Of a DNA stretch of 21,363 nt, positions 1,164 to 20,298 are shown piece by piece. Every line of letters starts with the position of its first letter. The stretch's first letter is position 1. This DNA comes from Mesotaenium endlicherianum (taxonomy: Eukaryota). The notes beneath the pieces are model-generated. The model did no database searches and was not told the DNA's origin. It saw nothing but the letters and a program-made list of their open reading frames with translations. A program made the translations under genes and the position numbers. The stretch covers positions 199,752-221,114 of the forward strand of contig WELA01003305.1 of NCBI GenBank assembly GCA_009602735.1, given 5' to 3'.

Positions 1164-1165
1164 GC

Positions 1166-2173
1166 TGTCATGATTTATTGAGTCGAGGTTGTCGCACAAA
1201 GCCGAGCTCCACATGTGTGAACCATCAACCTAGGAAGGCCGACTTTGCATAGACTTTACGCATCCATACGTTGACCTTTTCTCAATTTCCAAGTCATTAA
1301 AGTGTACGCGTCGAGTCACCTTCCGAATGGCACCGGGTTCGCGTCATTTGGTCAAGTATCGAGCGAGATATGAGCGATCTAGTCCGCGTCACCTATCGGC
1401 CCCTAGCGGATCCTCACCAAAGGGCAATTTGTGTTTCAATGTGCCCAAGGGACACATTCTTGCCTATTCGTGACCCCCTAAAACCCCCAGCTTGTGCGCA
1501 CAAATCCGCGAGCTCCTAGAGCACACATACCTTGCATTTCCATAGTATAAGTGCATCATTGAGGCTATAACTAGGTGACTGCATCAACTACGCCTAGAGG
1601 AAGCTTCCTCAAATTTTCGATCTTCGTTTGAGGTGCTATCTAGGTAGAATCACCCAAGGTAAGCTCCACCAATGAGAGACACATAGCATATTCTACATGC
1701 CTTGCTTTGATTGGATTGAGTTATGCTTAGCCTATAGGAGTGCTAGTACATGCCTTGTACACATTAGTGGACATAGAGAGCCTCCTAGAGGGACTAGATG
1801 CATTGGACTCGCCGCAGACCCCGGCGGATTTCCAGGAGTATAAGTACCAGAGATGTCCCTAGAGAGACATCTTTTTAGAAGTCCATTATGCCAGATGTAA
1901 GTAACAGAGATTATCAGTAAAGCTTACACCTTTATCTCTAGTGTGTTTTCAGGACCTCTTAGTTACTCTCTTGTGAAGAGCAAGCCCTCCTGGCTTCCAG
2001 TCACTTGAAGAACTTCACAAGTGGTGAGCAAAATCACAGCTTAAATCCTTGCATGGAACCACTTTTGAAGATCATGATGTGCTTCTAGTGATATTTTGGG
2101 CCATACTTCATTAGTTGTTTTCTTACCAGTTTTACAATTTTGAGGTGCCCACTCTGGAGAGTACACACTCCTT
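1166..2173 (+). repeat. Putative A segment (copy of the element's 5' terminal region) between B1 and B2
   Basis: Starts TGTCATGATTTATTG...TGTCGCAC, resembling the 5' terminus of element B (TGTCGCGACTATTATCC...TGTCGCAC). Non-coding, with TATAAG at 1839 and AGTAAA at 1916. Confidence 0.6.
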
Positions 2174-2311
2174 AATTAAAACATTTGACGCTTGACTCCC
2201 TTTTTGGCCTTTAAAGCCATTTGTATTATAGACTTCATTGCAGCAAAGCCTGCTTGTCTATTGTGTGTTGCTTATGCCAACAATGCGCACGTGATCTCTT
2301 AACGCACGACA
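2174..2311 (+). repeat. Terminal repeat B2 of element A (element 3' end)
   Basis: Direct repeat of 1026-1163. Its final CA abuts the interrupted RT gene. Confidence 0.92.
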
Positions 2312-2469
2312 GTGGTTCTACAAATCTCCTCCTTAGTAAAAGCAAACATCTTGCGGTGTTTCTTCAGCAACCTTTCTACTTGTGCTCTCTGCTGGGCTGA
2401 GACCATTTTTCCAATGGCAAAAGTCTCAGTTTCAGGTTGCTTCTCCCCAGCAAAGGCATCCAGTAGTTG
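2312..2469 (-). pseudogene. N-terminal stub of RT-RH-IN frame, copy 1
   Basis: QLLDAFAGEKQPETETFAIGKMVSAQQRAQVERLLKKHRKMFAFTKEEI, matching the start of the 1010-aa ORF of copy 2. Confidence 0.88.
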
Positions 2470-2472
2470 CTA
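2464..2472 (-). promoter_or_regulatory. Putative stop-codon readthrough signal UAG-CAA-CUA, copy 1
   Basis: In-frame TAG followed by CAACTA (CARYYA consensus). Identical in copy 2. Confidence 0.7.
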
Positions 2473-4323
2473 TTCCTTGGGTGCAGGTTGGGGCTTTTTG
2501 CCCTCATCCTGGCCCTCAGGCTTTTTTGCCTGATTCTGGCTCTCAGGCTTTTCTGCCTGATTCTTAGGAGGTGGGGTAGCAGGCTTTGCAGCTTGCTCCT
2601 CCGTTGCCAAAGGCTTTGCAGCCTGTTTCCTAGGCTTTTTGCCTTTCCTAATGACGCGTCGCCTCTCCTGCGGTGAGGTGTACGTCAGGCGCCTCCGGAT
2701 GGGTTGCCTCAGGAACATTTCCTCGTCGACTGCAGTCCAACTGGTCCCGGTTCCTCCTTCTTCACGTGGCCGAGGTTGGTTTGCCATTGGCCAACTTGCA
2801 AGATCTGTCCTAGGGCTGATTACCCAGCCCCACTCTTGCTCAATATTAGCCATGCGGGCGACGGTCGTGCCATACTCCTCCCTTGCGGGTGGTGTGACCG
2901 TCCATGCCTGCGTCAACGTTTGCGGCCTTTGAGGTGCCGCTAGTTGTGCGAGGAAAACATCATCTGCTGCGGTCAAGCGGCTGATGGTGTTCCCCAGATC
3001 CATCAGTTCCCATTCTGGGATTGCAGGTGTCATGGGAGCAGGTGCCTCCGACCTCTGCATCCTAAGATTTGATAGTTGCAACAAGGGCGTGTTCATGCCT
3101 GGCGGCACACTCATGCCCAGTGCCATTGCCCTGCGGATCAAGCCGTCCTCTCCCTCTCTCTGCAGAATATCCCGCAGAGGTGGAGGAGGTGGGGCTGTGG
3201 TTCCTCGCGGAACGCCCTCTCTCTGAGCCTTCCCCTTATGCTTGAAATATCGCTTTAGCATCCTCCTAAAAGATGCGTTACTCTCATGGGCCACCTACCT
3301 TGGTTTGCTTGCGCGACCCTCGGGCTTACCTTGCGCTGCCTCCACTTTAGCAGTGCAGGCAGTCACCTCCTGCCGTTGTGGCGATCGTGCGGTTGACTTG
3401 GGCTCTGCCACTGGAAGACTGGCAATAGGGGTACTGGATGTTGGTGACCTTAATTCTTCATAAATGTCTGCCGAGCTTGGCCCCATTAGGTGGTCAGCTA
3501 CCCAGTGGTCTGTCCTCAAAACCTGTAAGTCAAGCAGATTCAACTCTGGCGTGGGAAAACGTGGAATTTCTTCCCTGGCTTCCTCTCCATTGATGAGTGA
3601 TGGCAACTCAAACTCTGAGAGGCCTTGCATCTCTGCATCCTCTCCCACCTCCGGCTTCTCTGTTCCAGGAGGCGGCGATTCTTCATCCCCTCCTGTGTTG
3701 AGCCTCGCCATGTTGATGATGGCTGACTGTAGAGCGCGAGCTAATTTCGCCACTTTCTCTTCCTTGAGTCGAGGGGCGTCTGCTTCCAGCAACTGCTCCA
3801 TGATTTGCCTGGTGATCGACTCAGCTGTGCTCCCAACTGTGTCTTGTGGTTGCCCTTTGGCCTCTAGCTCTGGGCTCATCAGAACAAGTGTGGCGGGCAA
3901 TGTCTCGATCGTCTTCTTCCTGCGTTCTTCAAAATCACCTCCGGGCATGGTCTTCCCAGACCCTCCAGAATTTCTTGAATTCTGACTGCATTCTTTGGCC
4001 CATTCGCCAATATTGCACTGCCGTTCTTCATATCTTGATGTTACCGCTTCTGGGGATGGGCTCCCAAAGACCTGGTCTGGGGCCATGTTTCGTAACTCAG
4101 AACTGGTATAATCTTCCCATTCCGGCATCCTCCCAACTACCTGGCTGGAGCGTTTTGCAGATGCTGGGACCTCCTGTGATTTGCTTGCTGCAGCGCTCGC
4201 GAAAGGGTTTGCTTCACCAATTGCCTGGTCTTCCATGGCTACGTCTTCCCGCAGCCTTTGCAACTTTCTTTCCAGAGGGTCGTGTAGAGCCGTCATCCGA
4301 TTGTCAATTTGTGCCAGTAGGTC
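2470..4323 (-). pseudogene. Low-complexity P/E/S/K-rich polyprotein linker of unknown function, copy 1
   Basis: ORFs 3295-4296 and 2470-3294 are in one frame, split by TAG where copy 2 has AAG. They are also in frame with 4324-5154. Confidence 0.75.
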
Positions 4324-5615
4324 TTAACACCTGGTCAGCTCAACCACTCTGGTTTCTCTGAGTGCTTCACCTTGGTCAGCCTCAGCTGCGTCCCTTTCAA
4401 CACCATATTCTTCTTGTTGCTGATGCGCTTCCTTGATAGCTCTCTGATCAGAGATTGGCACCACATGGACTCCAATCGTTACTGGTCTCGGCCTGGGCAT
4501 AGGCTTGTCAAAGATTGTCATCTGCTGCCAAGTCATAATCGTCTCCAGCAACCACGTCATGGAGTGATGCCCAATCATATTGCCGAATATCTTCCCAGCG
4601 TCGTCCTGTCCCACCATCGCAACGATTTCTTGTGCAATGGAGTTGGGTACCCCCAGGCACCTTCCCTTCCCTTCAGCTGTCGGCTCTCTCCACTGAGCTT
4701 CTCTGTCGTGCGCATTCTTCACCATACTTGGTCCTCCATTCACGAATGCGCGTGATCCTGGGTATGCTGTGAAGGTGGGCAGCACCACCTTTGGCAGGCC
4801 TGGCTCGTTGACGACGTACTGTGGGTAGGAATCCCTCCTGATCACTGGCTTGGTTTCCACCAACAGTGCTTCTCCCACAGATACTGCCGTTGGTGTGCGC
4901 CGCGTAATCTCCTCCATCTCCCTCAGGATTTCAATGGACATGCCGTTGGTCCAGAATAGTCTGGCCTGGTGTGAGAGTCCTCCGTGCCTGGCGTCGTTGA
5001 TCAATACATGATGACCCAGGGTGGAGTCAAAGACCAGCCATGGATCTCCTTGCTTCATCTGGTTGTAATTCATCCCTGGATGTACATTCTCAATCACAAA
5101 CACTGGTGGGTAGAGATGCTGGCGTTCCCGCGGCATACCGATGATTTCCACCAACCATCCTCAGTGTTGTGCTCCCCGGGTCATTGAATCCCCTCCTGTT
5201 CCCAGTTTGCGAGAAAGGTTGACAAGGAATCCCGCAAAAAATCCAGTCAATCCTATAACCATACAAGTCCTCAGACTTCACATCGAGAATGTTTCCTCCA
5301 GCAAGACGCACCAAACTAGTAGGCACCAACGCCTTGAAATGGTACATTTGCCGCATCTGACTCTTGACCTCCTTAAATGCTGAAAGCACTCTCATCATTG
5401 TCCACATACAGCACTTTTGGTACCTGGATACCCTGCTGAATCAGTGAGATGGTTCCAGAACCAAGTCCGGCAAACAACTCCAGCACTACTACTCCTCTCC
5501 TGCGAAAAGGATCTTCCATCCTCACAATGCCTTGCGGCAGCGGGTCTACTCCATGCATCAAATTGGCAGTAGACTTAACTGCATAAGGAACTTGGCAGCA
5601 GCTCTTGCGGGCCAC
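4324..5615 (-). pseudogene. C5 cytosine DNA methyltransferase domain, frameshifted, copy 1
   Basis: ELFAGLG (I), GIPCQPFS (IV), IENV (VI), HQARLFW (VIII) and FGNM (X) are spread over three frames. Confidence 0.88.
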
Positions 5616-6657
5616 GGTCCCTGTTACTCACAGCCTCTAGTTGCTCCATAATCCAAGGTTGCCAAACCAAGGGAGTCGGCATGTTGATGCTGGTGTAGAT
5701 CTTCTCTTCGTGTTGCATGATGAGGTCATAATGGTCTGGATACTGGTCATTCACACAGCAGTCTAGCAGTCCGTAGTTTGCTTCTCCTGAGCAAACCATT
5801 TTTACAGGAATTTCTCCTGTCGGCTGCCGATCTGTCGACTGGTAAGTCACCCTCTGCTTCCGCAGGTCGATGACCATACCCAGGGGAATCAGGGCTTCTG
5901 TCCCCAAGAGAACATCATAGTTCTCTGCCTCTGTCACCGTGCATTTTATGGGCAGTGACGCCTCCTCAGGTTTCCCCAAGTTTATTGTGATTTTCACAGG
6001 CTTGCGGGTGATTCCACAAGACTTTAAAATCTGCCCAGATGCAGTCCTCAACTGAAAAGAAATTTCTTTCAGGTCCCTTGCCGTCAATCCCAGAGCTTTC
6101 ACAGCTCGCTTTCCCAAGATTACTGGCTGTGCGCCATTGTCCAATAGGATATTGGGAGCGGCCCAGTTGTTAAACGTCAAAACTCTATCCTTGTTCTGCA
6201 CTCTCACAGTGCTGAAATTAGTAGGCAGCGAAGCGCTGTTCGCGCCTTCCTCAGCATGGTCCAGCTGCTGTCCGGCTTCTTCAACCGTGAAAGGATACGT
6301 AAGACGCAGATCAACGAGTGAAAGACAAGGAATATGCTGAATCCGGTGTTCCACCAGAGCCTTCAGCTTCTCCAGCGAAAAACTAAATGTCTTGCGTGGC
6401 TCAGGCTTGGCTTGTCGTAGCTGCGCAATCTCGTTCTCATCGAGAGTGATCCAAAAGGTCTGAGGAAGCTTCTCAGCATTCCTTGGAACCAGACGGTCAT
6501 GATCTGCGCGCTCCGCAGCCGTTGCAGCCACGGCCTTCTCAGACGTCAGCTTCTCACCTTTGCAGACGGTCTTTTCGGCCACATCTGCATCATAATAGAC
6601 ATTAGGCACATTTAGTCTTGCAAATTGAGCTTTCAACTCTGCAATCTCTGCACTCAT
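5575..6657 (-). pseudogene. Retropepsin aspartic protease region, copy 1
   Basis: ILLDNGAQ (DTG in copy 2) and DVLLGTEAL. Confidence 0.85.
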
Positions 6658-8299
6658 AGCATCATACTTCTGGTTACCCTTTGGGTTACCAAATTTATCT
6701 TTTCCTTTTTCTTACCCTTATCTGCCTCTTTCGTGGCAGCATTAGCCCATGGTGGCTTCAGATTTGGGTTCTTGGACCAACACTCATCTTCTGAGTGTCC
6801 CTTTTTGCTGCAATGTGCGCATACCTGCGCCTTGCTAGCAGACAATTGCTTAGCATCCGGGTACGGACAATCTCTCTTTTGATGTCCCGATTTCCCGCAA
6901 TTCCAAGAGCCCTCTTCTGTCTCAGCAGTGTTGGCGTGCTTAGCAAACCTATTGAAAGACCCGCTCTTTTTCTTAAACTGAAAATTAGAGCTATTGGCCT
7001 TAGGCTGAAAGGATTCCTCCTTTCTCTCAGGAGCCATAAGCGTCCTGGAAGCCTCCTTGTACCAGACTTTACCTTCCTCGACATTGCGTGCTATTTCAGC
7101 AGACTCGTTGATGTTCCAATCGATTCCGCGTTTTGCAGATAGGTGCGGCCTGACCTCCCGATCTGTGTCTTTACCCAAACACAATAAGAATTTGTCAGCC
7201 ACAATCCTAGGCTCATAGATTCCTGCCTTCTTGGCAAGGTCTACCAATTTGGATTTGACCTCCATCACTGTCTCGTTCTTCTGACGGACAAAATGCACAT
7301 AGCGGTGCACCTTAAGACTGCGATCCTCTGGGAATTTTGCTTCAAGCAACTTAAAGAAACGACGCAGACAGTGCTCAGAGTCTAACTGGTCATCCCCAGC
7401 CTCCATATCCCTACGGCAACTAGCCAATGCTTGCGCATGGCTTGCTTTNCGCATGGCTTGCTTCGTGGTGGCACTATCACCATGCTACCCTGTAAAAGGT
7501 GCAGCCCTACGTGTTACTTATTCGTGAGCATTAGCAATCTTTTCAGACAATTCTGCACACACTTTACGCAATTCTGCGACAGACCCAGCATCATCATCTC
7601 GAGTAGCCGCTCGCTGCTGACCCTCGGTGAGTTGCTTCATGGCATCTGTTAATTCTTGTGTTAGTGCAGCTAAGTCTATGCTCTCAACAGGTGCAGCAGG
7701 TATCGCTCTTCCTGATGACAAAGCGGACAGGCGGGCTTTCGCAGCCTCTTTCTGAATTTTAATATCCCTCGCCTTCTTTTGCTCGTCAAACGCCCATTCC
7801 TGGGTAAGGTTCTCATCCTTCTGGAATTGGCCATAAAGCAACAAGGCATCCTTGTCCAAGTACTGAACCAAGCTTATAAAGCGAAAGACTGAGTGTAAGA
7901 AGAATCCTTTTGGATTCTCTCAAAGAAGTCAGCCCAATAGATCTCATCAAACTCTTCGAAAGTGAGACTATTTCCACCGGTTCGTCCACTAAAACACTTT
8001 GTAGACAGCTTGAACTTAGGATTTTCATCCTTATCATCACCAGTCATTTCGAACGGTGACCAAGACTCACTATCTTTACCCCACACGTCGTGCTCTCTGC
8101 CCAAATTGGGTACAAAGGCTTGCGCGTTATACGGATTCTCACCGTTCGTGGCAGTATGGCAAGACTCGTCTCCGGACGGTTGCTCACTCCACAGGTTATC
8201 CGTGCGCTCTGATGTCTCACTTCCTCGTGGACTCTGGCTTGAATCAGAACCTTCCGCAGGCTCCACAGGGTAGTAGAGTCTTCCACTCCTCAACCGCAT
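6654..8299 (-). pseudogene. gag: Gag with zinc knuckles, frameshifted, copy 1
   Basis: MRLRSGRLY start and CAHCSKKGHSEDEC knuckle. The first knuckle has C-to-S. The frame is broken near 7875, 7518 and 7449. Confidence 0.82.
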
Positions 8300-8908
8300 G
8301 TACAGTTGAATTTCTCCGGATCCCCTTCCAGGTTGAGCACCGGCAGCCCTCACAGGCCTCAATCCCCAATTTGCTTGGGAATTTCTATTCACCTGAATTA
8401 CAGAACCGAGGTTCTCAGAAGTAGGATGGAAGTCTCTTACTTCCACATAGGCTTTATGCCTTAAGGTTCTTGGGTTCACAGGCGAGCAAATTGTAGTTTG
8501 CAAAACACTCTAAGCAGCTTGACATACAACGTCAGATTCAGAGAAAATCGCCCTTCAGGCTTTCGCTTAACTTTCACAAAGTCACAGCTTACAAAACTCT
8601 GAAACTACACGTCTATGCTGGCCTGGGTCAAGCTCTTCACTTAACACCGCGCCTTAACAGTTCTTCACTGCCAGGCTAGGCTCACTCATTTCTTCACTGA
8701 GAGCCTTATCTGCCAATACTACCCTCTCTCTTCGAGATGCGAATGCGACTTCTAAGAACCTGGAAACTAACACACAACTCATCATTTTAAGGCTGCTTCA
8801 CACACACTTGTGGCGTTCGGCCAAATCTGTGCTAATCTCCTAGCAGATTCTATTCTGCAGTTTTCCTACTTTCAACAGTGAGATTCCCTTTTGGGAACTC
8901 CTACAATC

Positions 8909-9127
8909 CTAACTTATCTTCGATACACTAAGAAGAATCTTCAGCGTCGGCAGAAGCGTGGGGCCTCGGCTCTCCAATGGCCTTGGGAACTCCTTCTTCT
9001 TCTTCGCGCCCTTCTTCTCCTTCCTTCTGCTCTTTCTGCTCCTTCTGCTTCTTGGCAAAAGTGCGTGAGAGTGAATAACATGTCTCAGGCAAGATTCGTG
9101 CCTTCCGCAGGCACCACACAGCGTCAT
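8909..9127 (-). CDS. Possible small Cys/His- and Lys/Arg-rich upstream ORF, copy 1
   Basis: ATG start, CGACGRHESCLRH, basic tract. The frame is open in both copies. Confidence 0.25.
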   Translation of the reverse strand: MTLCGACGRHESCLRHVIHSHALLPRSRRSRKSRRKEKKGAKKKKEFPRPLESRGPTLLPTLKILLSVSKIS

Positions 9128-9723
9128 CTTTCGAGAATGGCGTGCTTAGTCACAAAGCTTAGCTTCATGTCGCTTCTTCCTAGCCATGCTCAACTCAAAC
9201 TCGTAGTCACTCGGCATGCATGCACACCTCGTGACTGTCGCTTCTCAGCTGGCAGTCACGCCTAATTGGCTCGTGGCTAAGAACTCCTGAGCGGCGTGTA
9301 CAAGCAAATGCCCCTTGCTCAAGATTCCCAACCGGGCGGCCGTAACCTATCTTGGCATTGCGGCCATGACCTGGCTTAATCTGCCAGTCACACAGTATCT
9401 GACTTGGTACCTGCTGGGCAACTCATCACTGATCCCCAACTTCTAGCCTCGCGGCTGTCTATGATGTCAAAACCTCCCCCATCCCTGGGTGTGGGGCACA
9501 TTGACATTGACCCCTTGCCAGTGGTCTTGACGCCGACATAACCACTGACTGCGACGTAATCAGTCAAGTGGTCGGTGAGTCAACGTTGACTTTCCGAACC
9601 TGGATGGCCGTAGCTTGCGCTGCGTGTGCGGCACCGTCAAACGGATAGTAGTCGCGACACCAATTCTATACCGTAGTATATACCTACCTCTATTATATTC
9701 TACCACATTAATTAATATATCTC

Positions 9724-9727
9724 ATCA
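9724..9727. repeat. 4-bp target site duplication ATCA (left)
   Basis: ATCA|TGTCGTG at 9724-9734 and CGCGACA|ATCA at 20288-20298. Confidence 0.75.
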
Positions 9728-10023
9728 TGTCGTGCCTAACAGTGTCGGTCCCTCGGCACGTGCGTAGCCTTCCAGCACGTGTGCCTTCGGCCTGGTTGAT
9801 GTGTCGGTGGCCCTCCTGACGTGTGGCAGACATGGTCGATCGACCTTTGCACGTGTGTTGGTGACAAGCCTTACCAGGGTTAACCCATCCCTGGGTTCCT
9901 GAACTTGCACCATGCAGCCTTGACCAACACTCAGGGTGACGTTCTCTGTCACCCGGCTCTCACCATCTGCTTATCCTAAGACTTTAGCAGAAAATTTTAA
10001 AAAATACTTGCCTTGCCTTAATT

Positions 10024-10044
10024 CCTCTTACACCCTTCCCTTTC
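10024..10044 (-). promoter_or_regulatory. Putative polypurine tract of element B
   Basis: Minus strand GAAAGGGAAGGGTGTAAGAGG, overlapping the integrase stop and followed by AATTAA as in element A. Confidence 0.6.
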
Positions 10045-13000
10045 AGCTGAGGCGTCCCTGCCTTTCCTGCTGAAAGCTATTATTTTCCAGCCCTGCGGCT
10101 AGGGGTTTAGGAAGGCAATCAGGACATTCCCATCGTCCTGCCATAATTTCTTCCTCGCCAATGCAGAAAGTGTGCCAACGGGCACCACACTCGTCGCAAG
10201 TTACCATTGCTTCCTGATCGTCCAGCACTTTGCACCTGGCACAAGGCGTGGCCGGCACCAATTCCTCGGGCACCACCCTAACTGTGGGATCAATATTCGG
10301 CAAATGGCATAGCGAGCAATTCTGCACGTGGTCTCTCATGGTTTTACCATCAAAACCTTCCAGTTCTAACACACCATTGTCAAACGCATGTTTCACGCGC
10401 AAGATCACTGCACCTGAACTGGTGTCGATGGTGGTCTTGGTCTGGCGCTTGCGGTAGACAAAGTCTCCTTCTTGTATCCGCGTCATCTGCAGGCGGTAGC
10501 TCCCGTCTCGCGTCCTAGCGTAACGTTGCGTATCTCTTTTCTGTGCAATTTTCAGATTGACTAGTGCAGCCGGTATCATGCGTTCAAATAACGCCTTACG
10601 GCGCACCATCACTTTTAACAGTTCATCAGGGCTGTCCAGGTCTTTCACCTGTTCAATCTCCTGCTTGATGCTGCTGGGCACTACTGGACTTCTGCCAAAC
10701 AGTATCTGATATGGCGAGTAATTTGCCAAGGCAGCCTGCTTGCTAAATCTGTAACCCATAACCAGCCATGGCAGGGCTAGATCCCAGTCACGCTTGTCAT
10801 GCTCAAGGCAAAACTTGCGCAAAGCAGACTTAATGGTTTGCACCATCCTTTCTGCCAGACCATCTGCTTGCGGATGATCTCTAGACGTAGTGCGATGATC
10901 GATGAAGCATCTGTCCAAGAGTTTCTGAAAAGACCCTTGGAACTCAGACCCTTGGTCTGTCAGCACTTCTGCTGGAGCTCCATGACGCACAATCACACCA
11001 TTGAGGAATGCTTCCGCGGTCCCTAGGCTTTCCTTAGCAGTCAGAGGGACAACCTCTATCCACTTAGAGAAATGCTCAATCATGACCATGATATACTTGT
11101 TACCTTGCTTAGACAGCGGTAGCTCACCTGCGAGATCGCAGCTCCAACGGTAACCTAGGCCCATGATTGGCAAATGTTGCAAGTGTAGGTGTTGCTGCGT
11201 AAAACCAGCCTTGACGCGATCACAGCTTTGGCAAGCCTTGATCACATCTTCACACTGCTGCTTCATGCCCCTCCACCAGTAAGACAGCTCCAAAAGACTA
11301 TATGTCTTCTTGACACCATAGTGTCCAGTGTTCTTGTGCATTTCTTGCACAAGGGCTCGTCCTTTGATGGGTTCTGGCACTAACTTCTCCTGACCAGTTT
11401 CTTCAATTCTGAAGAGGTTGTTGCATTTCCAGCAAAACCTTTTAGCTCGATGGTTTACCTGGTCCTTCTCCTTCACTGATAGTCCTTCCAAGTGAGTTCC
11501 CGTCTTAAGCCAGTGCATAGTAGCTTGATCTTTCCAGATCTCTGTACTGAACAGGGGTAGAGGCTCAGCTTCACCTGATGCTACTATTCCAGCCATTTCG
11601 GCTAGGCAAGCCACCAACTCTGCTGGGCTGCTCGGGTCTTCGTCCTCTCGAGCTCCTGTTCTGTCGTCTGAAGATGGGTCTGGGTTCCTGCTGAGTCCAT
11701 CGGCGTCGTTGTTGAGCACTCCTGCTCTGTGCACCACCGTCATTTGGTACTCTTGCAGCTTAAGAGCCCAGCGAGCCAACTTACCAGTGAGGTCTCCATT
11801 CTTCATCAGCCATAGTAATGGTGAGTGATCCGTGATCAGTGTGAAGGGTCTTCCCCACAGATACTCTCTGAAGTGTGTGACCGCCCAAACCACTGCCAGC
11901 AGCTCTCCTTCATAGGACGAGTAGTTGCTCTCCGCTCGATTGTTAGAGCGTGAGGCATAGGCAATGACATACTCCTCTCTAGGGCTTGTGGCCTGAGTGA
12001 GTACTGCGCCAATTCCCACACGACTCCAGTCAGTGTGCATATTGAACGGTTTGGAGTAGTCAGGCGTTCGCAAGACTGGGGCTGTTACCAGCCGCTTCTT
12101 AAGCTCGTTCATGGCTTTCTCCTGAGCTTCTGTCCACACAAAAGGTACATCCTTTTTCAGGAGTTCCGTAAAGGGTTTAGCAATTCTGCTATAATCCTTC
12201 ACAAACTTACGATAGTATCCGCTTAGCCCTAACAGAGCTTTCAGCTTAGACACATTCGCAGGTGCAGGTATCTTGTAAATAGCCTCAGTCTTCACAGCCT
12301 GAGGGGACATAGCATTGTTCCCAATCTCATGTCCTAGGTAAGGCACGTGTGCCTCAAAGATTTTGCACTTCCCAGGATGCAGCTTCATCTGGAATTTCTC
12401 CAGGCGCTGGAACACTTGTTCCAAGTGCTCGAGGTGCTCCTCTATGGACTTGCTGAATACTACCACATCGTCTATGTATGGCTTAGCGAAATCCAGCCCC
12501 TCTAGCACTTTATCCATAGTCCTCTGAAATATGGCTGGGGCATTTTTCAGCCCAAATGGCATTACTGTCCATTGCCAAAGTTCCCTTTGAGCCCAAAAAG
12601 CAGTTTTACCTCGATCTTCTGTTTTCACAAGGATCTGGTTGAAGCCTTGGCGCAGATCGATAATGCTGAACACCTTTCCGGTGGTGGCAATTACAAAGAT
12701 CCGTTCCGGCGTAGGCATCACATAGCTATCCGGCTCCGTGTAGAGATTCAGTCGCCTGTAATCTCCACACATACGAGTGGCAGTGTAATTGCCGGCCTCG
12801 TCCTTTTTAGTGACTACTATTGTAGGAGCTCCATGTATTGAGGTAGATTTTTCAATCATGCGGAGCTTATGCAGCTCTTCACAAGTGTTCTCCACACAGT
12901 CCCATTCTGTCTGACTGAGCTTATGCGGCCCTAGTCTGATTGGGTTATCAGTAGTTAGTGTGATCTCACACGCACTGGCAGTGGTTCCACCAATCTCCTC

Positions 13001-13138
13001 CTTAGTGAAAGCAAATACCTTGCGGTGTTTCTTCAGCAACCTTTCTACTTGTGCTCTCTGCTGGGCTGAGACCATTTTCCCAATGGCAAAAGTCTCAATT
13101 TCAGGTTGCTTCTCCCCAACAAAGGCATCCAGTAGTTG
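10043..13138 (-). CDS. pol: Pol: reverse transcriptase - RNase H - DDE integrase - PHD finger (open frame)
   Basis: RT: CGDYRRLN, IDLRQGFNQI, MPFGLKNAP, YIDD (about 12467-12478). RNase H: TDWS, YEGELLA, TDH, DADGLSR. Integrase: H-H-C-C, CDLAG, TDQGSEF, AERM. PHD C4HC3 at 10115-10243. First ATG at 13075, but the frame is open from 13138. Confidence 0.96.
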   Translation of the reverse strand, partial: QLLDAFVGEKQPEIETFAIGKMVSAQQRAQVERLLKKHRKVFAFTKEEIGGTTASACEITLTTDNPIRLGPHKLSQTEWDCVENTCEELHKLRMIEKSTSIHGAPTIVVTKKDEAGNYTATRMCGDYRRLNLYTEPDSYVMPTPERIFVIATTGKVFSIIDLRQGFNQILVKTEDRGKTAFWAQRELWQWTVMPFGLKNAPAIFQRTMDKVLEGLDFAKPYIDDVVVFSKSIEEHLEHLEQVFQRLEKFQMKLHPGKCKIFEAHVPYLGHEIGNNAMSPQAVKTEAIYKIPAPANVSKLKALLGLSGYYRKFVKDYSRIAKPFTELLKKDVPFVWTEAQEKAMNELKKRLVTAPVLRTPDYSKPFNMHTDWSRVGIGAVLTQATSPREEYVIAYASRSNNRAESNYSSYEGELLAVVWAVTHFREYLWGRPFTLITDHSPLLWLMKNGDLTGKLARWALKLQEYQMTVVHRAGVLNNDADGLSRNPDPSSDDRTGAREDEDPSSPAELVACLAEMAGIVASGEAEPLPLFSTEIWKDQATMHWLKTGTHLEGLSVKEKDQVNHRAKRFCWKCNNLFRIEETGQEKLVPEPIKGRALVQEMHKNTGHYGVKKTYSLLELSYWWRGMKQQCEDVIKACQSCDRVKAGFTQQHLHLQHLPIMGLGYRWSCDLAGELPLSKQGNKYIMVMIEHFSKWIEVVPLTAKESLGTAEAFLNGVIVRHGAPAEVLTDQGSEFQGSFQKLLDRCFIDHRTTSRDHPQADGLAERMVQTIKSALRKFCLEHDKRDWDLALPWLVMGYRFSKQAALANYSPYQILFGRSPVVPSSIKQEIEQVKDLDSPDELLKVMVRRKALFERMIPAALVNLKIAQKRDTQRYARTRDGSYRLQMTRIQEGDFVYRKRQTKTTIDTSSGAVILRVKHAFDNGVLELEGFDGKTMRDHVQNCSLCHLPNIDPTVRVVPEELVPATPCARCKVLDDQEAMVTCDECGARWHTFCIGEEEIMAGRWECPDCLPKPLAAGLENNSFQQERQGRLS

Positions 13139-13141
13139 CTA
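13133..13141 (-). promoter_or_regulatory. Putative stop-codon readthrough signal UAG-CAA-CUA, copy 2
   Basis: TAG at 13139-13141 is in frame with pol, 21 codons before the ATG at 13075, in CARYYA context. Confidence 0.7.
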
Positions 13142-15040
13142 CTCCTTAGGTGCAGGTGGGGGCTTCCCGCCCTCATCCTGGCCCTCATGCTTTTCTGCCT
13201 GATTCTGGCTCTCAGGCTTTTCTGCCTGATTCTTAGAAGGTGGGGTAGCAGGCTTTGCAGCTTGCTCCTCCGTTGCCATAAGTTCGGCAGCCTGTTTCTT
13301 AGGCTTTTTACCTTTTCCAATGACGCGTCGCCCCTTGCGGTGAGGGGTATGTCAGGCGCCTCCGGATGGGCTGCCTCAGGAACATTTCCTCGTCGATTGC
13401 AGTCCAACTGGTCCCGGTTCCTCCTTCTTTACGTGGCCGAGGTTGGGTAGCCATTGGAAAACCTGCGGGGTCTGTCCTAGGGCTGATCGCCCAGCCCCAT
13501 TCTCGCTCAATAATAGCCATGCGGGCGACGGTCGTGTTATACTCCTCCCTTGCGGGTGGTGTGACCATCCATGCCTGCGCCAATGTTTGCGGCCTTTGAG
13601 GTGTTGCTAGTCGTGCGAGAAAGGCATCATCTGCTGCGGTCAAGCGGCTGATGGTGTTTCTCTGATCCATCAGTTCCCATCCTGGGATTGCAGGTATTAT
13701 GGGAGCAGGCTCCTTCGACCTCTGTATCCTAAGATCTGATAGTTGCAACAAGGGCGTGTTCATGCTTGGCGGCACACCAATGCCCAATGCCATTGCCCTG
13801 CGAACCAAACCGTCCTCTCCCTCTCTCTGCAGAATATCCCGCAGGGGCGGAGGAGGTGGGGCTGTGGTTCCTCGCGGAACGCCCTTTCTTTGAGCCTTCC
13901 CTTTATGTTTGAAATATCGCTTTAGCATCCTCCTAAAAGATGCGTTACCCTCACGAGCCTCCTTCCTTGGTCTGCTTACGCGACTTTCGGGCTTTCCTCG
14001 TGCTGTCTCCACTTTAGCAGTGCAGGCAGTCACCTCCTGCTGTTGCGGCGATTGTGCGGCTGACTTGGGTTCTGCCACTGGAAGACTGGCAGAAGGAGAA
14101 CTGGATGTTGGCGACCTTAATTCTTCATAAAGGTCTGCTGGGCTTGGCCCCATCAGGTGGTCAGCCACCCAGTCGTCTGTCCTCAGCTCCTGTAAGTCAA
14201 GCAGATCCAACTCTGGCGTGGGAAAACGTGGAATTTCTTCCCTAATGTCCCCTTCATTGTTGAGTGATGGCAACTCCAACTCCGAGAGGCCTTGCATCTC
14301 TGCATCCTCTTCCTCCTCCGGCTTCTCTATTCCAGGAGGCGACAATTCTTCATCCCCTCCTGTGTTGAGCCTCGCCATGTTGATGATAGCTGACTGTAGA
14401 GCGAGAGCTGCTTTTGCCACTTTTTCGAGGGGCGTCTGCTTCCAGCAACTGCGCCATGATTTGCCTGGTGATTGACTCAGCTGTGCTGCCAACTGTGTCT
14501 TGTGGTTGCCCTTTGGCCTCTGGCCCTGGGCTCATCCGAGCAAGTGTGGCGGGCAATCTCTTGGCCGCCTCCTTCTTGTGTTCTTCAAAAATCACCTCCA
14601 GGCAAATGGTCATTCTAGACCCTCCAGAATTTCCTGAATTTTGACTGCATTCTTCGGCCCATTTGCCAATATTGCACTGGCGTTCTTCATATCTTGATGT
14701 TACCGCTTTTGGGGATGGGCTCCCGGAGACCTGGTCTGGGGCCATGTTTCGTAACTCAGAACTGGTATAATCTTCCCATTTCGGCATCCTCCCAACTACC
14801 TGGCTGGAGCGTTCTGCAGATGCTGGGACCTCCTGTGATTTGCTTACTGCAACGCTCACCAAAGGGTTTGCTGCACCAGTTGCCTGGTCTTCCATGGTTA
14901 CATCTTCTCGCAGCCTCCGCAACTCTCTTTCTAGAGGGTCGTGTAGAGCCGCCATCCGAGTGTTAATTCACGTCAATATGTCTTGACACCTGGTCAGTCC
15001 CACCACTCTGGCTTCTCTGAGTGTTTCCTCTTAGTCAACC
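13139..15040 (-). pseudogene. Low-complexity linker region, copy 2 (frameshifts and stops)
   Basis: Homologous to 2470-4380. Indels near 13333, 14425 and 15050, and stops near 14968 and 15031. Confidence 0.75.
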
Positions 15041-17752
15041 TCAGCTGCGTCTTTCAACAGCATATTCTTTTTGTCGCTGATACGCTTCCCTCATAGCTCT
15101 CTGATCAGAGGTTGGCACCACATGAACTCCAATCGCTACCGGCCTCGGCCTGGGCATAGGCTTGTCAGAGAACGTCATCTGTTGCCAAGTTATAATCGTC
15201 TCTACCAACCATGTCATGGACTGATGCCCAATCATATTGCCGAACATCTTCCCAGCGTTGTCCTGTCCCACCTTTGCAACAATTTCTTGTGCAATGGAGC
15301 TGGGTACCCCCAGGCACCTTCCCTTCTCTTCAGCTGTCGGCTCTCTCCACTGAGCTTCTCTGTTGTGCACATCTTTGACCATTCCTGGCCCTCCATTCAC
15401 GAAAGCGCGTGATCCTGGGTATGCTGTGAAGGTGGGCAACACCATTCTCGGCCGGCCTGGCTTGTTGACGACGTACTGTGGGTAGGAATCCCTCCTGATC
15501 ACTGGCTTGGTTTCCACCAACAGTGCTTCTCCCACAGATACTGCCGTTGGTGTGCGCCGCGTAATCTCCTCCATCTCCCTCAGGATTTCAATGGACATGC
15601 CGTTGGTCCAAAATAGTCTGGCCCGGTGTGAGAGTCCTCCGTGCCTGGCGTCGTTGATTAATACATGATGACCCAAGGTGGAGTCGAAGACCAGCCATGG
15701 ATCTCCTGGCTTCATGTGGCTGTAATCCATCCCTGGATGTACATTCTCAATCACAAACACTGGTGGGTAGAGATGCTGGCGTTCCCGCAGCATAATGATG
15801 ATCTTCACCATCCTTCCCCAGTGTTGTGCTCGCGGGTCATTGAATCCCCTCCTGTTCCCAGCTTGCGAGAAAGGTTGACAAGGGAATCCCGCAAAAATCC
15901 AGTCAATCCTGTAATCATACAGGTCGTCAGACTTCACATCGAGAATGTTTCCTCCAGCAAGACGCACAACACTAGTGGGCACAAATGCCTTGAAATGGTA
16001 CATTTGCCGCATCTGACTCATGGCCTCCTCAAATGCTGTAATAACATTCTCATCATTGTCCACATACAGCACTTTGGATACTCGGATACCTCGCTGAATC
16101 AGTGTGATGGTTCCAGTACCAAGTCCGGCGAACAATTCCAGCACTACTATTCCTCTCCTGCGAAAAGGATCTTCCATCCTCACAATGCCTTGCGGCAATG
16201 GGTCTACTCCAGGCATCAAATTGGCAGCAGTCTTAACAGGATAAGGAACTGGCAGCAGCTCTTGCGGGCCACGGTCCCTGTTACTCACAGCCTCTAGTTG
16301 CTCCATAATCCAAGGTTGCCAAACCAAGGGAGTCGGCATGTTGATGCTGGTGTAGATCTTCTCTTCGTGTTGCATGATGAGGTCATGATGGTCTGGATAC
16401 TGGTCATTCACACAGCAGTCTAGCAATCCGTAGTTTGCTTCTCCTGAGCAAACCATTTTTACAGGAATTTCTCCTGTTGGCTGCCGATCTGTCGACTGGT
16501 AAGTCACCCTCTGCTTCCGCAGGTCGATGACCATACCTTGGGGAATCAGAGCTTCTGTCCCCAATAGAACATCATAGTTTCCTGCCTCTGTCACCGTACA
16601 GTCTATGAACAGTGACGCCTCCTCAGGTTTCCCCAAGTTTACTGTGATTTCCACAGGCTTGCGGGTGATTCCACAAGACTTTGAAATCTGCCCAGATGCA
16701 CTCCTCAACTGGAAAGGACTTTCTTTCAAGTCCCTGGCCGTCAATCCCAGAGCTTTCACAGCTCGCTTTCCCAAGATTACTGGCTGTGCGCCAGTGTCCA
16801 ATAGGATATTGGGAGCGGCCCAGTTGTTAAACGTCAAAATTCTATCCTTGTTCTGCACTCTCACAGTGCTGAAATTAGTAGGCAGCGAAGCGCTGTTCGC
16901 GCCTTCCTCAGTTAGGTCCAGCTGCTGTCCGGCTTCCTCAATCGTGAAAGGATATGTAAGACGCAGATCAGCGAGTGAAAGACAAGGAATGTGCTGAATC
17001 CGGTGTTCCACCAGAGCTTTCAGCTTTTCCAGCGAAAGACTAAATGTGTTGCGTGGCCCAGGCTTGGCTTGTCGTAGCTGCGCAATCTCGTGCTCATCGA
17101 GAGTGATCCAAAAGGTCTGAGGAAGCTTCCCAGCATTCCTTGGAACCAGACGGTCATGATCTGCGCGCTCCGCAGCCGTTGCAGCCACGACCTTCTCAGG
17201 CGTCAGCTTTTCGCCTTTGCAGACGGTCTTTTCGGCCACATCTGCATCATAATAGACATTAGGCACATTTAGTCTTGCAAATTGAGCTTTCAATTCTGCA
17301 ATCTCTGCACTTATAGCATCATACTTCTGATTACCCTTCCGGTTACCAGAGTTATCTTTCTCCTTTTTCTTAGCCTTATCTGCCTCTTTCGTGGCAGCAT
17401 TAGCCCATGGTGGTTTCAGATTTGGGTTCTTGGACCAACACTCATCTTCTGAGTGTCCCTTTTTACTGCAATGTGCGCATACCTGCGCCTTGCTAGCAGA
17501 CAATTGCTTAGCATCCGGGTACGGACAATCTCTCTTCTCATGTCCTGATTTCTCGCAGTTCCAACAGCCCTCTGCTGTCTCAGCAGTGTTGGCGTGCTTA
17601 GCAAACCTATTGAAAGACCCGCTCTTTTTCTTAAACAGAAAGTTAGAGCTATTGGCCTTGGGCTGAAAGGATTCCTCCCTTCTCTCAGGAGCCATAAGCG
17701 TCCTAGAAGCCTCCTTGTACCAGACTTTACCTTCCTCGACATTGCGTGCTAT
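15041..17752 (-). CDS. Polyprotein segment: two CCHC knuckles, aspartic protease, C5 cytosine methyltransferase (about 15200-16150)
   Basis: CWNCEKSGHEKRDC, CAHCSKKGHSEDEC; LLDTGAQ; ELFAGLG (I), AGFPCQPFSQAG (IV), IENV (VI), HRARLFW (VIII), RCLGVP (IX), FGNM (X). Confidence 0.93.
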   Translation of the reverse strand: MARNVEEGKVWYKEASRTLMAPERREESFQPKANSSNFLFKKKSGSFNRFAKHANTAETAEGCWNCEKSGHEKRDCPYPDAKQLSASKAQVCAHCSKKGHSEDECWSKNPNLKPPWANAATKEADKAKKKEKDNSGNRKGNQKYDAISAEIAELKAQFARLNVPNVYYDADVAEKTVCKGEKLTPEKVVAATAAERADHDRLVPRNAGKLPQTFWITLDEHEIAQLRQAKPGPRNTFSLSLEKLKALVEHRIQHIPCLSLADLRLTYPFTIEEAGQQLDLTEEGANSASLPTNFSTVRVQNKDRILTFNNWAAPNILLDTGAQPVILGKRAVKALGLTARDLKESPFQLRSASGQISKSCGITRKPVEITVNLGKPEEASLFIDCTVTEAGNYDVLLGTEALIPQGMVIDLRKQRVTYQSTDRQPTGEIPVKMVCSGEANYGLLDCCVNDQYPDHHDLIMQHEEKIYTSINMPTPLVWQPWIMEQLEAVSNRDRGPQELLPVPYPVKTAANLMPGVDPLPQGIVRMEDPFRRRGIVVLELFAGLGTGTITLIQRGIRVSKVLYVDNDENVITAFEEAMSQMRQMYHFKAFVPTSVVRLAGGNILDVKSDDLYDYRIDWIFAGFPCQPFSQAGNRRGFNDPRAQHWGRMVKIIIMLRERQHLYPPVFVIENVHPGMDYSHMKPGDPWLVFDSTLGHHVLINDARHGGLSHRARLFWTNGMSIEILREMEEITRRTPTAVSVGEALLVETKPVIRRDSYPQYVVNKPGRPRMVLPTFTAYPGSRAFVNGGPGMVKDVHNREAQWREPTAEEKGRCLGVPSSIAQEIVAKVGQDNAGKMFGNMIGHQSMTWLVETIITWQQMTFSDKPMPRPRPVAIGVHVVPTSDQRAMREAYQRQKEYAVERRS

Positions 17753-18943
17753 TTAAGCAGCCTCGTCGATGTTCCAGTCGATTCCGCGTTTCGCAAATAG
17801 GTGCGGCCTGACCTCCCGATCTGTATCTTTACCCACACACAATAAGAATTTGTCAGCCACAATCCTAGGCTCATAGATTCCCGCCTTCTTGGCAAGGTCT
17901 ACCAATCTAGATTTGACCTCCATCACTGTCTCGTTCTTTTGACGGACAAAATGCACATAGCGGTGCACTTTAAGACTGCGATCCTCTGGGAATGTTGCTT
18001 CAAGCAATTTAAAGAAACGACGCAGACAGTGCTCAGAGTCTAACTGGTCATCCCCAGCCTCCATATCCCTACGGCAAATAGCCAATGCTTGCGCATGGCT
18101 TGCTTCCGTGGTGACACTATCACCATGCTGCCCTGTAAAAGGTGCAGCTCTGCGTGTTACTCGTTCCTGGGCATTAGCAATCTTTTCAGACAATTCTGCA
18201 CACACTTTACGCAATTCTGCGACAGACCCAGCATCATCATCTCGAGTAGCCGCTCGCTGCTGACCCTCGGTGAGTTGCTTCATGGCATCTGTTAATTCTT
18301 GTGTTAGTGCAGCTAAGTCTACGCTCTCAACAGGTGCAGCAGGTATCGCTCTTCCTGATGACAAAGCGGACAGGCGGGCTTTCGCAGCCTCTTTCTGGAT
18401 TTTCAAATCTCTCGCCTTCTTTTGCTCGTCAAACGCCCATTCCTGGGTAAGGTTCTCATCCTTCCGAAATTGGCGATACAGCAACAAGGCATCCTTGTCC
18501 AAGTACTGAACCAAGCTTATAAAAGCGACTGACTGAGTGTAAGAAGAATCCTTTCGGATTTTCTCAAAGAAGTCAGCCCAATAGATCTCATCAAACTCTT
18601 CGAAAGTGAGACTATTTCCACTGGTTCGTCCACTAAAACACTTTGTAGACAGCTTGAACTTAGGATTTTCATCCTTATCATCACCAGTCATTTCGAGTGG
18701 TGACCAAGACTCACTATCTTTATCCCACACGTCGTGCTCTCTGCCCGAATTGGGTACAAAAGCTCGCGCGTAATACGGATTCTCACCGTTCGTGGCAGTA
18801 TGGCGAGACTCGTCTCTCGACGGTTGCTCACTCCACAGGTTATCCGTATGCTCAGATGTCTCACTTTCTCGTGGACTCTGGCTTGAATCAGAACCTTCCG
18901 CAGGCTCCACAGGGTAGTAGAGTCTTCCACTCCTCAACTGCAT
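17753..18943 (-). pseudogene. gag: Gag N-terminal/capsid region, copy 2, cut from the downstream ORF by one nonsense codon
   Basis: First ATG at 18943 (MQLRSGRLY). TAA at 17753-17755 corresponds to GAA in copy 1, and the frame is the same as 15041-17695. Confidence 0.82.
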
Positions 18944-19546
18944 GTACAGTTGAATTTCTCCGGGTCCCCTTCCAGGTTGAGCACCGGTAGCCCTCACAGG
19001 CCTCAATCCCCAATTTGCTTGGGAATTTCTATTCACCTGAACCACAGAACCCAGGTTCTCAGAAGTAGGACGGAAGTCTCTTACTTCCACATAGGCTTTA
19101 TGCCTTAAGGTTCTTGGGTTCACAGGTGAGCAAATTGTAGTTTGCAGAAATCACACTCTAAGCAGCTTGACATGCAACGTCAAATTCAGAGAAAATCGCC
19201 CTTCAGGCTTTTGCTTAACTTCCACAAGTCAGCTTACAAAACTCTGAAACTACGTCTATGCTGGCCTGGGTGAAGCTCTTCACTTAACACCGCGCCCTAA
19301 CAGCTCTTCACTGCCAGGCTGGGCTCACTCAGTTTTTCACTGAGAGCTTTATCTGTCAATACTACTCTCTCTCTTCGAGATGCGAATGCGACTGCCGAGA
19401 ACCTGGAAATCAACACACTACTCACCATTTTAAGGCTCCTTCACACACACACACTTGTGGCGTTCGGCTGACTCTGTGCTAATCTCCTAGCAGATTCTAT
19501 TCTGCACTTCTCCTTCTTCAACCGTGAGATTCCCTCTTGGGAACTC

Positions 19547-19753
19547 CTACAATCCTAACTTATCTCTGATACACAGAAGAATCTTCAGCGTTGTCAGAAG
19601 CGTGGGGCTTTGGCCCTCCAATGGCCTTGGGAACTCCTTCTTCTTCTTCGCGCCCTTCTTCTCTTTCCTTTTGCCTCTTGGCAAAGGTGCGTGAGAGTGA
19701 ATGACATGTCTCAGGCAAGATTCGTGCCTTTCGCAGGCACCACACAGCATCAT
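19547..19753 (-). CDS. Possible small Cys/His- and Lys-rich upstream ORF, copy 2
   Basis: MMLCGACERHESCLRH...KRKEKKGAKKKKE, homologous to 8909-9127. Confidence 0.25.
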   Translation of the reverse strand: MMLCGACERHESCLRHVIHSHAPLPRGKRKEKKGAKKKKEFPRPLEGQSPTLLTTLKILLCIRDKLGL

Positions 19754-20294
19754 CTTTCGAGAATGCCGTGCTTAGTCACACAAGTTAGCTGCATGTCGCT
19801 TCTGCCTAGCCATGCTCAACCCAAACTTGTAGTCATTCAGCATGCATGCACACCTTGTGACTGTCGCGCGTGACTGCTTAGCTTCTCAGCTGGCAGTCAC
19901 GCCTAATTGGCTCATGGCTAAGGATTCCTGAGCGGCGTGCAAGCAAATGCCACCTGCTCAAGTTTTCCCAACCGGGCGGCCGTAACCTATCTTGGCATTG
20001 CAGCCATGACCTGGCTTAATCTGCCAGTCACACAGTACCTGACCTGGTACTTGCTGGGCGGCTCATTGCTGATCCCCAGCTCCTAGCCTCGCGGCTGTCT
20101 TGTCAAAACCTCCCCCATCCTTGGGTGTGGGGCACACTGACATTGACCCCTTGCCAGTGGTCTTGACGCCGCCATAACCGCTGACTGCGATGTAATCAGT
20201 CAAGTGGTCGGTGAGTCAAGGTCGACTTTCAGCACTAGGTGGCCGTAGCTTGCGCTGCGCGTGCGACACCGTCAAACGGATAATAGTCGCGACA

Positions 20295-20298
20295 ATCA
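20295..20298. repeat. 4-bp target site duplication ATCA (right)
   Basis: Matches 9724-9727. Confidence 0.75.

Follow-up and report, generated by a model that had tools for sequence, protein, structure and literature searches.

A split-repeat Gypsy family with a C5 methyltransferase in Mesotaenium endlicherianum, and a possible route to its short form by integrase cutting within the LTR

The elements in the window

The window, by which we mean the whole 21,363-nucleotide stretch of contig WELA01003305.1 that was analysed, contains a retrotransposon on the reverse strand at positions 9728-20294 (copy 1). Pfam matches give it the domain set of a Gypsy element in the Gypsy order, namely gag, protease, reverse transcriptase (RT), RNase H and integrase, to which a C5 methyltransferase and a PHD finger are added. 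A stop at 17753-17755, absent from a second copy of the family in the window, separates the N-terminal gag region (17753..18943) from the frame that follows. The following 903-aa frame (15041..17752) contains, from Pfam and motif matches, two CCHC knuckles, an aspartic protease (about 16547-16810) and a C5 cytosine methyltransferase, for which the Pfam match covers about 15737-16144 and the motifs FAGLG, FPCQ and ENV are all there. The methyltransferase frame is 29% identical (E 6e-24) to a Klebsormidium DNMT-RT-integrase protein, and similarity to this K. nitens protein is what suggests the label Dnmt3; a search of solved structures with the methyltransferase gave HaeIII methylase as the sole match. 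A C5 methyltransferase was found in 47 of the 80 related loci.

Next comes a long linker coding region (13142..15040), which has no Pfam match and carries frameshifts in copy 1. Just ahead of the RT frame, both window copies have an in-frame TAG followed by CAACTA (13133..13141), which we take to be a readthrough motif, the TAG being likely a programmed readthrough stop. The motif is complete in 5 of 53 related loci, with a near match in 9 others, and a literature search on readthrough found nothing. The open 1031-aa frame (10043..13138) then encodes, from Pfam and motifs, RT (YIDD), RNase H, an H2C2 finger, the integrase core and the PHD finger. The core residues D668, D728 and E763 show the D,D(35)E spacing of an rve core. 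Among solved relatives of this frame, Ty3 Gag-Pol ranks best (E 2e-93), and the RT frame is 43% identical to a K. nitens protein with Gypsy and methyltransferase domains. The 11 frames scanned gave no match to a tyrosine recombinase.

Copy 2 (2312..9659, reverse strand) is 92% identical to copy 1, the differences being 376 transitions and 128 transversions. Its 5' end is intact, and its junction there with the window flank is present in the public DNA run X1 at depth 71. Its 3' part has been cut at the start of RT by an element of another, related family, and the tail is lost. The 3' part of that related family lies on the forward strand at 1..2311, with integrase-PHD at 3-1012, a polypurine tract (PPT) ending at 1025, and direct repeats in a full split form: B1 1026-1163, GC 1164-1165, A2 1166-2173 and B2 2174-2311. 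A 1-N gap and a small duplication at 7449 are a sign of short-read scaffolding.

Ends, repeats and junctions

Copy 1 is flanked by ATCA (9724..9727 and 20295..20298, forward strand), and the left 11 nt match the reverse complement of the right 11 nt at 9 positions, as a first reading made from the sequence alone had described. The copy has TG...CA ends and a target-site duplication (TSD) within the 4-6 bp range of Ty3/Gypsy elements. That reading had also found no long repeat between tail and leader in either copy, and for copy 1 this holds: self-BLAST at word size 4 gave exact repeats of at most 15 nt (best E 0.33). Its lengths are likewise borne out, the tail being 315 bp (9728-10042) and the leader reaching to the gag ATG at 18943; the longest word common to the two is 9 nt, where 20 shuffles give 8-11. 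For copy 2, whose own tail is lost, the comparison is of its leader with the tail of copy 1, and these share a word of only 13 nt (E 0.036). Two identical terminal LTRs are thus absent from copy 1 by self-comparison, and full family copies have split repeats.

Contig joints from public DNA runs divide the ends into two blocks. Block B (305 bp, 9728..10032, reverse strand) forms the 3' end of the element and terminates in the right att half-site; its inner edge is set by joints 10032->19067 (runs X1, X5 and X6) and its outer edge by joints 20294->9728 (run X1). Block A (1228 bp, 19067..20294, reverse strand) forms the 5' end, begins with the left att half-site, and is single in copy 2. B would be the first part of U3, and A the remaining U3, R and U5. 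The layout A-coding-B-A-B is absent from copy 1, which has A-ORFs-B only. However, the same blocks are joined elsewhere in public DNA run contigs as both B-NN-A and A|B, the A|B joints coming from three studies (X1, X5 and X6), and coverage of A and B exceeds that of the ORFs. The full layout of this family is therefore read from separate joints, no single contig spanning a full copy. No empty-site joint was seen among the joints listed, X5 and X6 hardly covering the flanks.

B starts directly after a PPT (10033..10043 in copy 1, reverse strand) in both window families and in the families of L010, L028 and L074. The inner end of A adjoins a likely primer-binding site (PBS; 19051..19066, reverse strand), complementary to 19391-19406 (reverse strand). 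This second stretch is a likely self-primer with which the RNA would begin, and it lies about 25 nt past a weak TATA-like word (19427-19435). The pairing is 12/14 plus one G-U pair, the best of 100 shuffles being 11; a perfect-repeat test of the window self-primer is not significant, and the PBS is weak in this decayed copy. Among 16 regions, 9 have the inner end of A adjoining a perfect 12-16-nt complement of a word that follows a TATA box by about 30 nt. These pairs differ by family, and no more than 2 of 100 shuffles do as well; the perfect-inverted-repeat test failed in the other 7 (both window copies, L062, L071, L074, L075 and L078). These pairings make a PBS of the self-priming type likely for the family. 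In run X24, sense depth is 1.4-3.3 over A with little over the ORFs, a pattern compatible with RNA ends in A but too thin, coming from 88 reads (6% of the run).

The two junctions differ in character. B-NN-A is a precise att-att palindrome, with a two-letter spacer in 15 of 15 copies that show it. The spacers in X1 are always two letters (AC at depth 497, GC 180, GT 135, AT 94), the set expected if a GC palindrome decays by C-to-T change. A scan of 34 loci found 12 junctions after pol, and 9 of them have GC. A|B is an exact join of PBS border to PPT border in 6 of 14 copies and ragged in the other 8, with 1-215 nt lost or letters added; X1 holds several variants, some retaining PBS letters. 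The raggedness could partly come from few parents, or arise after insertion.

Related loci carry the full form, A-ORFs-PPT-B-NN-A-B, with 4-bp TSDs, and the short form A-ORFs-B occurs as well. Many of these loci are old, decayed copies drawn from few metagenome assemblies. Ten insertions have both ends in one locus: six have a TSD of 4/4 and two of 3/4, the exceptions being L019 (abnormal) and L044 (ends eroded), and at 5 bp none exceeds 3/5. The recurrence of this length in related insertions puts the 4-bp TSD of the earlier reading above chance. In two related families the short form accounts for 9 of 23 insertions (B 175 bp) and 4 of 6 insertions (B 115 bp), respectively. The count for the L010 family left out L008 (in which B meets an inverted A fragment), L035 and L044 (eroded ends), and L022 and L024 (B-NN-A present, B2 absent). 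Short forms end cleanly, with a TSD of 4/4 in L014 and 3/4 in L047. Permuted copies (A-B-NN-A-ORFs-B) were seen at none of 14 visible 5' ends, and six full against no permuted copies has p 0.016 under 50:50.

Candidates for circles were set aside. L065, L066 and L068 show the same 16.2-kb unit, with its one junction, in different circular permutations, and a collapsed repeat graph looks identical. Viral contigs contained no protein relatives of the element, and 19 viral-contig matches to the junction word are chance, none lying near RT, integrase or methyltransferase.

Copy 1 is a Gypsy element and not an LTR-less kind. Given the two junctions in public runs and the relatives with both forms, the suggestion of the sequence-only reading, a split-repeat element in an A1-ORFs-B form, stands. 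That copy 1 belongs to a methyltransferase-bearing Gypsy family with split repeats is close to certain, and within that family it is classed as a derived short form.

A proposed replication route and the origin of the short copy

Since B starts at the PPT, A ends at the PBS, and B-NN-A is precise while A|B is ragged, RT likely produces B-NN-A as the LTR, which would have the att sites internal to it. The RNA would start inside A at the self-primer and end in the second A; B2 is unlikely to be in the RNA, because an end signal in B would stop the RNA already in B1. RT would prime itself in the Tf1 manner, giving the linear cDNA B-NN-A-ORFs-B-NN-A, an ordinary two-LTR product. Its blunt ends, the A end at the PBS border and the B start at the PPT border, would be end-joined to give A|B. 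Integrase would then cut CA-NN-TG in a staggered fashion, after the CA of each strand, to yield two ready att ends, much as foamy virus integrase has been reported to cut a circle-junction palindrome on both strands with the loss of two nucleotides (PMC1180852). Cutting the two-LTR circle at the first B-NN-A junction would produce A-ORFs-B-NN-A-B, a full form that keeps R at both ends and could move again. Opening a one-LTR circle, or cutting the cDNA at both junctions, would produce A-ORFs-B, which has no R at its 3' end and would be unable to move again. The absence of permuted copies disfavours a symmetric cut of the circle, and some unexplained bias is required.

Judged from the sequence, the steps of RNA, self-priming and two-LTR cDNA, end-joining and palindrome cutting are, taken jointly, rather probable. 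The whole account, in which integrase cuts B-NN-A inside the LTR and copy 1 is an inserted one-LTR circle or doubly cut cDNA, has our slight preference. In a wider version, towards which we also lean a little, a Gypsy lineage widespread among streptophyte algae and bryophyte-grade plants would have shifted its att sites to mid-LTR, and its productive insertions would always go through an end-joined two-LTR circle, opened by the DDE integrase at a built-in CA-GC-TG palindrome. By the same modest preference, the split direct repeats would be a permuted two-LTR circle, and the window element an integrated one-LTR circle.

For copy 1 itself, direct integration would be an evenly balanced proposition. 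The sequence-only reading had named the right candidates, namely recombination between B1 and B2, assembly collapse and integration of a single-repeat circle; we would place the one-LTR circle or double cut first, B1xB2 recombination a close second and collapse last. On the second reading, copy 1 went in as the full form and only afterwards lost NN-A2-B2, B1 and B2 having undergone recombination or single-strand annealing, possibly following an integrase cut at the chromosomal B1-NN-A2. The route proposed for the family can still hold in that case. Solo LTRs commonly form by LTR recombination; the direct repeats of this family are only about 1.2 kb apart, the product retains the TSD and clean ends, and copy 1 is old, to judge from its 92% identity to copy 2. 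Against this, divergence puts short forms at no greater age than full ones (medians 0.100, n=11, and 0.108, n=12; p 0.37, in a test of little power), they are equally common where B is just 115 bp, and none of 9 multi-assembly sites is polymorphic for full and short forms, a comparison of low power in which samples may be related. From sequence alone the two origins look alike, and we regard loss by recombination as a serious contender, nearly as likely for copy 1, if the lesser of the two.

A separate question, at the level of the family, is whether replication proceeds as in PAT and Ngaro, with an RNA from A1 into B2, template switches that rebuild the ends, and A|B copied. The layout A1-ORFs-B1-A2-B2 is the same (PMC4157794; PMC5890265), permuted copies would be absent, and the 6 of 14 exact A|B joins would be accounted for. 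However, this leaves unexplained why B starts at the PPT and A ends at the PBS, why A|B is ragged and B-NN-A precise, and how the RNA passes B1 yet ends in B2; the family also lacks a tyrosine recombinase and has TSDs. We consider it unlikely.

Collapse of B1 and B2 in assembly, with deletion of A2, is improbable. The scaffolding signs at 7449 point that way, but in the same window the B1 and B2 of the other family (95% identity) were kept apart and two 7.4-kb copies, 92% identical, were resolved. Moreover, over the 8 pieces listed, 208 of about 6,100 letters (about 3%) differ between copy 1 and the X5 contigs, so the B1 and B2 of copy 1 would differ also. Short forms occur in other assemblies too, and for one of them two assemblies agree on the site (L019, L025). 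Least probable is a self-sufficient LTR-less element, either a Ginger-like DNA transposon with RT or an RT element needing no terminal redundancy: TGT...ACA ends, a 4-bp TSD, PHD after integrase and the missing repeat would suit it, but the inverted match is 11 bp against Ginger terminal inverted repeats (TIRs) of 40-270 bp, gag, protease, RT and RNase H are present where Ginger is described without RT (PMC2836005), and a redundant form exists in the family.

LTR finders that require a pair of LTRs, as in PMC6317226, would overlook both forms, and annotation of a large family may therefore be incomplete. If the proposed route is true, this lineage would offer a natural case of routine circle integration, legible from genome sequence; it would link retroviral integrases to junction cutting of the IS3 type and give split direct repeats a simple origin. 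A full copy would also be an uncut integrase substrate in the chromosome, and a possible break site.

Comparison with known systems

The accepted view is that retroviruses and LTR retrotransposons integrate from linear cDNA and that LTR circles are dead ends. Circle-junction integration is an old proposal, surviving mainly for foamy virus and drug-blocked HIV, and the role of the foamy virus circle-junction palindrome is disputed. In the copy-out-paste-in route of IS3 and IS911, a related DDE enzyme cuts the circle junction of abutted ends, which have a 2-3-bp spacer; these are DNA transposons whose spacer comes from flanking DNA, whereas the spacer here is a fixed GC. The two-LTR circle of foamy virus, described by Delelis et al. 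(2005; PMC1180852), likewise has a palindrome with two nucleotides between conserved CA ends. There it is made by joining LTR ends, whereas in the present family it would be copied along with the LTR and is retained after integration.

Tf1/Sushi and Tcn1 share the order RT-RNase H-integrase and a PPT before the 3' repeat, and they have a PBS that pairs with the 5' end of their own RNA, as the present family may have. They are described as having att sites at the LTR ends, integrating as LTR-ORFs-LTR and ending in a chromodomain, where the present element ends in PHD (PMC6317226, PMC4600332). PAT, Ngaro and VIPER have the split layout but use a tyrosine recombinase (PMC4157794), in place of the DDE integrase, att ends and 4-bp TSDs found here. 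Ginger1 and Ginger2 resemble the element in their TGT ends, 4-bp TSD, Gypsy-like integrase and sometimes PHD (Bao et al., 2010; PMC2836005). The likeness drawn earlier to Ginger stands for the ends and goes no further, TGT...ACA being also Gypsy; with long TIRs and no RT in the published description, Ginger does not include copy 1.

The closest system is KnitGypsy-Dnmt3 of Klebsormidium nitens, which combines Gypsy domains with a C5 methyltransferase and for which de Mendoza et al. (2018) had already drawn DIRS-like repeats in the split layout A-coding-B-A-B (PMC5890265). That was the only paper found on 'KnitGypsy'. The sequence-only reading had not noticed this precedent, the likely self-primer or the likely place of the att sites within the LTR made by RT. 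For replication of split-repeat Gypsy elements no paper was found in a search with Repbase Reports, theses and subscription journals outside its scope, any of which could describe the junction. Compared with KnitGypsy-Dnmt3, copy 1 has its methyltransferase and RT set apart by about 630 codons of linker and a likely readthrough stop, and its layout is reduced to A-ORFs-B. The passages of PMC5890265 on the element describe neither a TSD nor an att junction, and neither the mode of priming, a short form nor a mechanism. What is new here is that B lies at the PPT, that A ends at a likely self-primer PBS, and that a precise B-NN-A palindrome stands beside a ragged A|B.

Copy 1 and its neighbours in the window

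Copy 1 (9728-20294, minus strand) is a real feature. It has ATCA on either flank, its ends match as inverted repeats at 9 of 11 positions, and comparison of the element with itself gives no internal repeat above chance; the flanks, inverted ends and missing LTR pair described in the sequence-only reading are thus all reproduced. The first coding part comprises gag (two CCHC knuckles), protease and C5 cytosine methyltransferase, followed by a long unassigned linker. An open frame of 1031 aa then encodes RT, RNase H, integrase and a PHD finger, which may steer insertion targeting. The element is decayed: a single premature stop interrupts gag, and frameshifts break up the linker.

Just before RT, both window copies (13133-13141 and 2464-2472) have a TAG in frame with a CARYYA context after it, the motif of plant-virus readthrough. 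The same arrangement occurs in 5 of 53 related loci (L001, L003, L004, L040 and L070), and a stop plus CAACCC in nine further loci of the 53. Readthrough at the TAG is likely to set the dose of RT-integrase.

Copy 2 (2312-9659) is 92% identical to copy 1, lies 68 bp from it and lacks the 3' part; at 7449 it contains a single N inside a short duplication, a typical scaffold gap. Window 1-2311 is the 3' end of an element of a related family. Three insertions of the lineage are grouped in AT-rich DNA at 1-20294, one of them nested in copy 2 at the RT start. An expressed host gene (plus strand) extends from 20667 to beyond 21096, starting about 370 bp from the 5' end of copy 1, and reads over it skip a GT-AG intron that ends at 21095.

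Split repeats and the two forms

Contigs of three public DNA runs (X1, half of which was read, X5 and X6) and reads of one RNA run were aligned to window 9662-21000. Two joints recur. In X1, the right end of copy 1 leads back to its left end with exactly two letters (NN) between, these being AC, GC, GT or AT; in all three DNA runs, 10032 is connected to 19067. Block A is therefore 19067-20294, block B is 9728-10032, and the family layout is A-ORFs-B-NN-A-B. These joints reject an LTR-less family, and bear out the proposal that copy 1 is the A1-ORFs-B form of a split-repeat element. A and B are also deeper than the ORFs in 3/3 DNA runs, depth being a rough measure. No aligned DNA-run contig held a whole copy of this family, while for the window's other family the layout can be read directly (B1 1026-1163, GC, A2 1166-2173, B2 2174-2311).

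A search of metagenome contigs gave 541 matching stretches, of which 314 were confirmed and 80 kept as loci. In one family (B of 175 bp), 35 loci reduce to 23 insertion sites: 11 are full, nine have one B only, with a clean transition to flank, one has B-NN-A without a second B, one has B fused to an inverted piece of A, and one is eroded. A second family, with a B of 115 bp, has a single B at 4/6 3' ends. Most single-B loci lack a 5' end, their form resting on the 3' end. Among ten insertions with both ends visible, six have an exact 4-bp target-site duplication (TSD; five full, one short, L014), two, one of each form, match at 3/4 positions, and the remaining two comprise an abnormal and an eroded case. 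The survey of forms and TSD lengths proposed from the sequence thus finds both forms in relatives, each with exact 4-bp TSDs.

Some ends are irregular. At L019:13212-13229 and L025:3590-3607, a short-form copy has two extra spacer-like letters (AC) at the B end and then 6 bp duplicated from the left flank, a pattern suggestive of aberrant insertion after a cut at the junction. At L008:1805-1929 the B end runs into a segment of the element's own A in inverted orientation, and from L022:3986 onward (L022/L024) inverted internal sequence is attached to the A2 end; autointegration or nested insertion is possible for both.

Nature of the blocks and a proposed integration route

A polypurine tract (PPT) directly precedes B in five families. 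The sequence immediately following A is complementary to a word within A itself, located some 30 nt downstream of a TATA box. In 9/16 regions the pairing is perfect over 12-16 nt and has a different sequence in each family (shuffles reach at most 2/100); this test missed the other seven, both window copies among them. With the test fixed at the A end, copy 1 pairs at 12/14 positions plus a G-U pair, above all 100 shuffles, copy 2 at 13/14, which shuffles reach, and L028/L040 at 14/14. At the B-NN-A junction, two integrase end (att) half-sites form a palindrome whose spacer is always two letters, mostly GC or the C-to-T decay products of GC. The A|B join fuses A's primer-binding site (PBS) border to B's PPT border, exactly in 6/14 copies; in the other eight, 1-215 nt are missing or letters have been added. 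Six copies were judged by sibling A ends instead of their own.

Given a PPT before B and a likely self-priming PBS after A, ordinary LTR reverse transcription would, by the standard pathway, yield a linear cDNA B-NN-A-ORFs-B-NN-A, with B-NN-A as its LTR. Its ends would not be att sites, these being internal to each LTR, and the blunt ends would be end-joined before or after strand transfer, leaving A|B joins that are exact or have losses or extra letters. If CA-NN-TG were cut after CA on each strand, the stagger would leave two ends with 3' CA and 2-nt 5' overhangs. A two-LTR circle opened at its first junction would then insert as A-ORFs-B-NN-A-B, and an opened one-LTR circle as A-ORFs-B with a proper TSD, as in copy 1; two cuts, after which the first A and the first B are inserted as a pair of ends, would give the same product. 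Equal cutting at both junctions would, however, be expected to produce permuted copies, and there are none among 14 visible 5' ends (6 full against 0 permuted, p 0.016).

Alternatively, copy 1 may have lost NN-A2-B2 through B1xB2 recombination, an event with an identical product. Short copies do not, however, exceed full ones in age (p 0.37, n=11 and 12), and they are common even where B measures 115 bp; together these points tilt the balance no more than mildly towards direct integration. A collapse in assembly is unlikely for copy 1. It is worth adding that L065, L066 and L068 carry the same 16.2-kb unit in three circular permutations, with just one B-GC-A junction; a one-LTR circle would have this topology, which collapse of the assembly graph could also give. 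Lacking a second A, copy 1 has no 3' R and would have no means of copying itself; it is a short form and likely a dead end. What makes it interesting is that, together with its relatives, it reveals on sequence grounds a probable route of integration through circle junctions in a lineage of Gypsy elements.

Kinship and known systems

A search with the RT frame gave 2109 relatives out of 7979 scored candidates, the named organisms near the top being Calypogeia, Klebsormidium, Closterium and Riccia, from which a streptophyte alga or a plant of bryophyte grade is the likely host. The methyltransferase is also present in 47/80 kept loci. In the families of L062, L065-L069, L071, L077, L079 and L080 it lies within the RT-to-integrase span and not before RT; since its position differs among families, the domain moved within the lineage.

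The literature searched (without Repbase and subscription journals) yielded no internal att palindrome, self-priming or end-joined A|B border, nor a short form or TSD, for a split-repeat Gypsy element. The split layout in a methyltransferase-bearing Gypsy element is already in print: KnitGypsy-Dnmt3 was described in Klebsormidium by De Mendoza et al., and one line of a figure legend there gives it a DIRS-like repeat arrangement with Gypsy domains (PMC5890265). The copy 1 methyltransferase is 29% identical to that of a K. nitens protein that has these domains too. The pairing of the stretch after A with the inner word is the self-priming layout described for Tf1 and Tcn1 (PMC4600332, PMC6317226), and foamy virus integrase is reported to make the same both-strand cut as proposed here at its own circle junction (PMC1180852).
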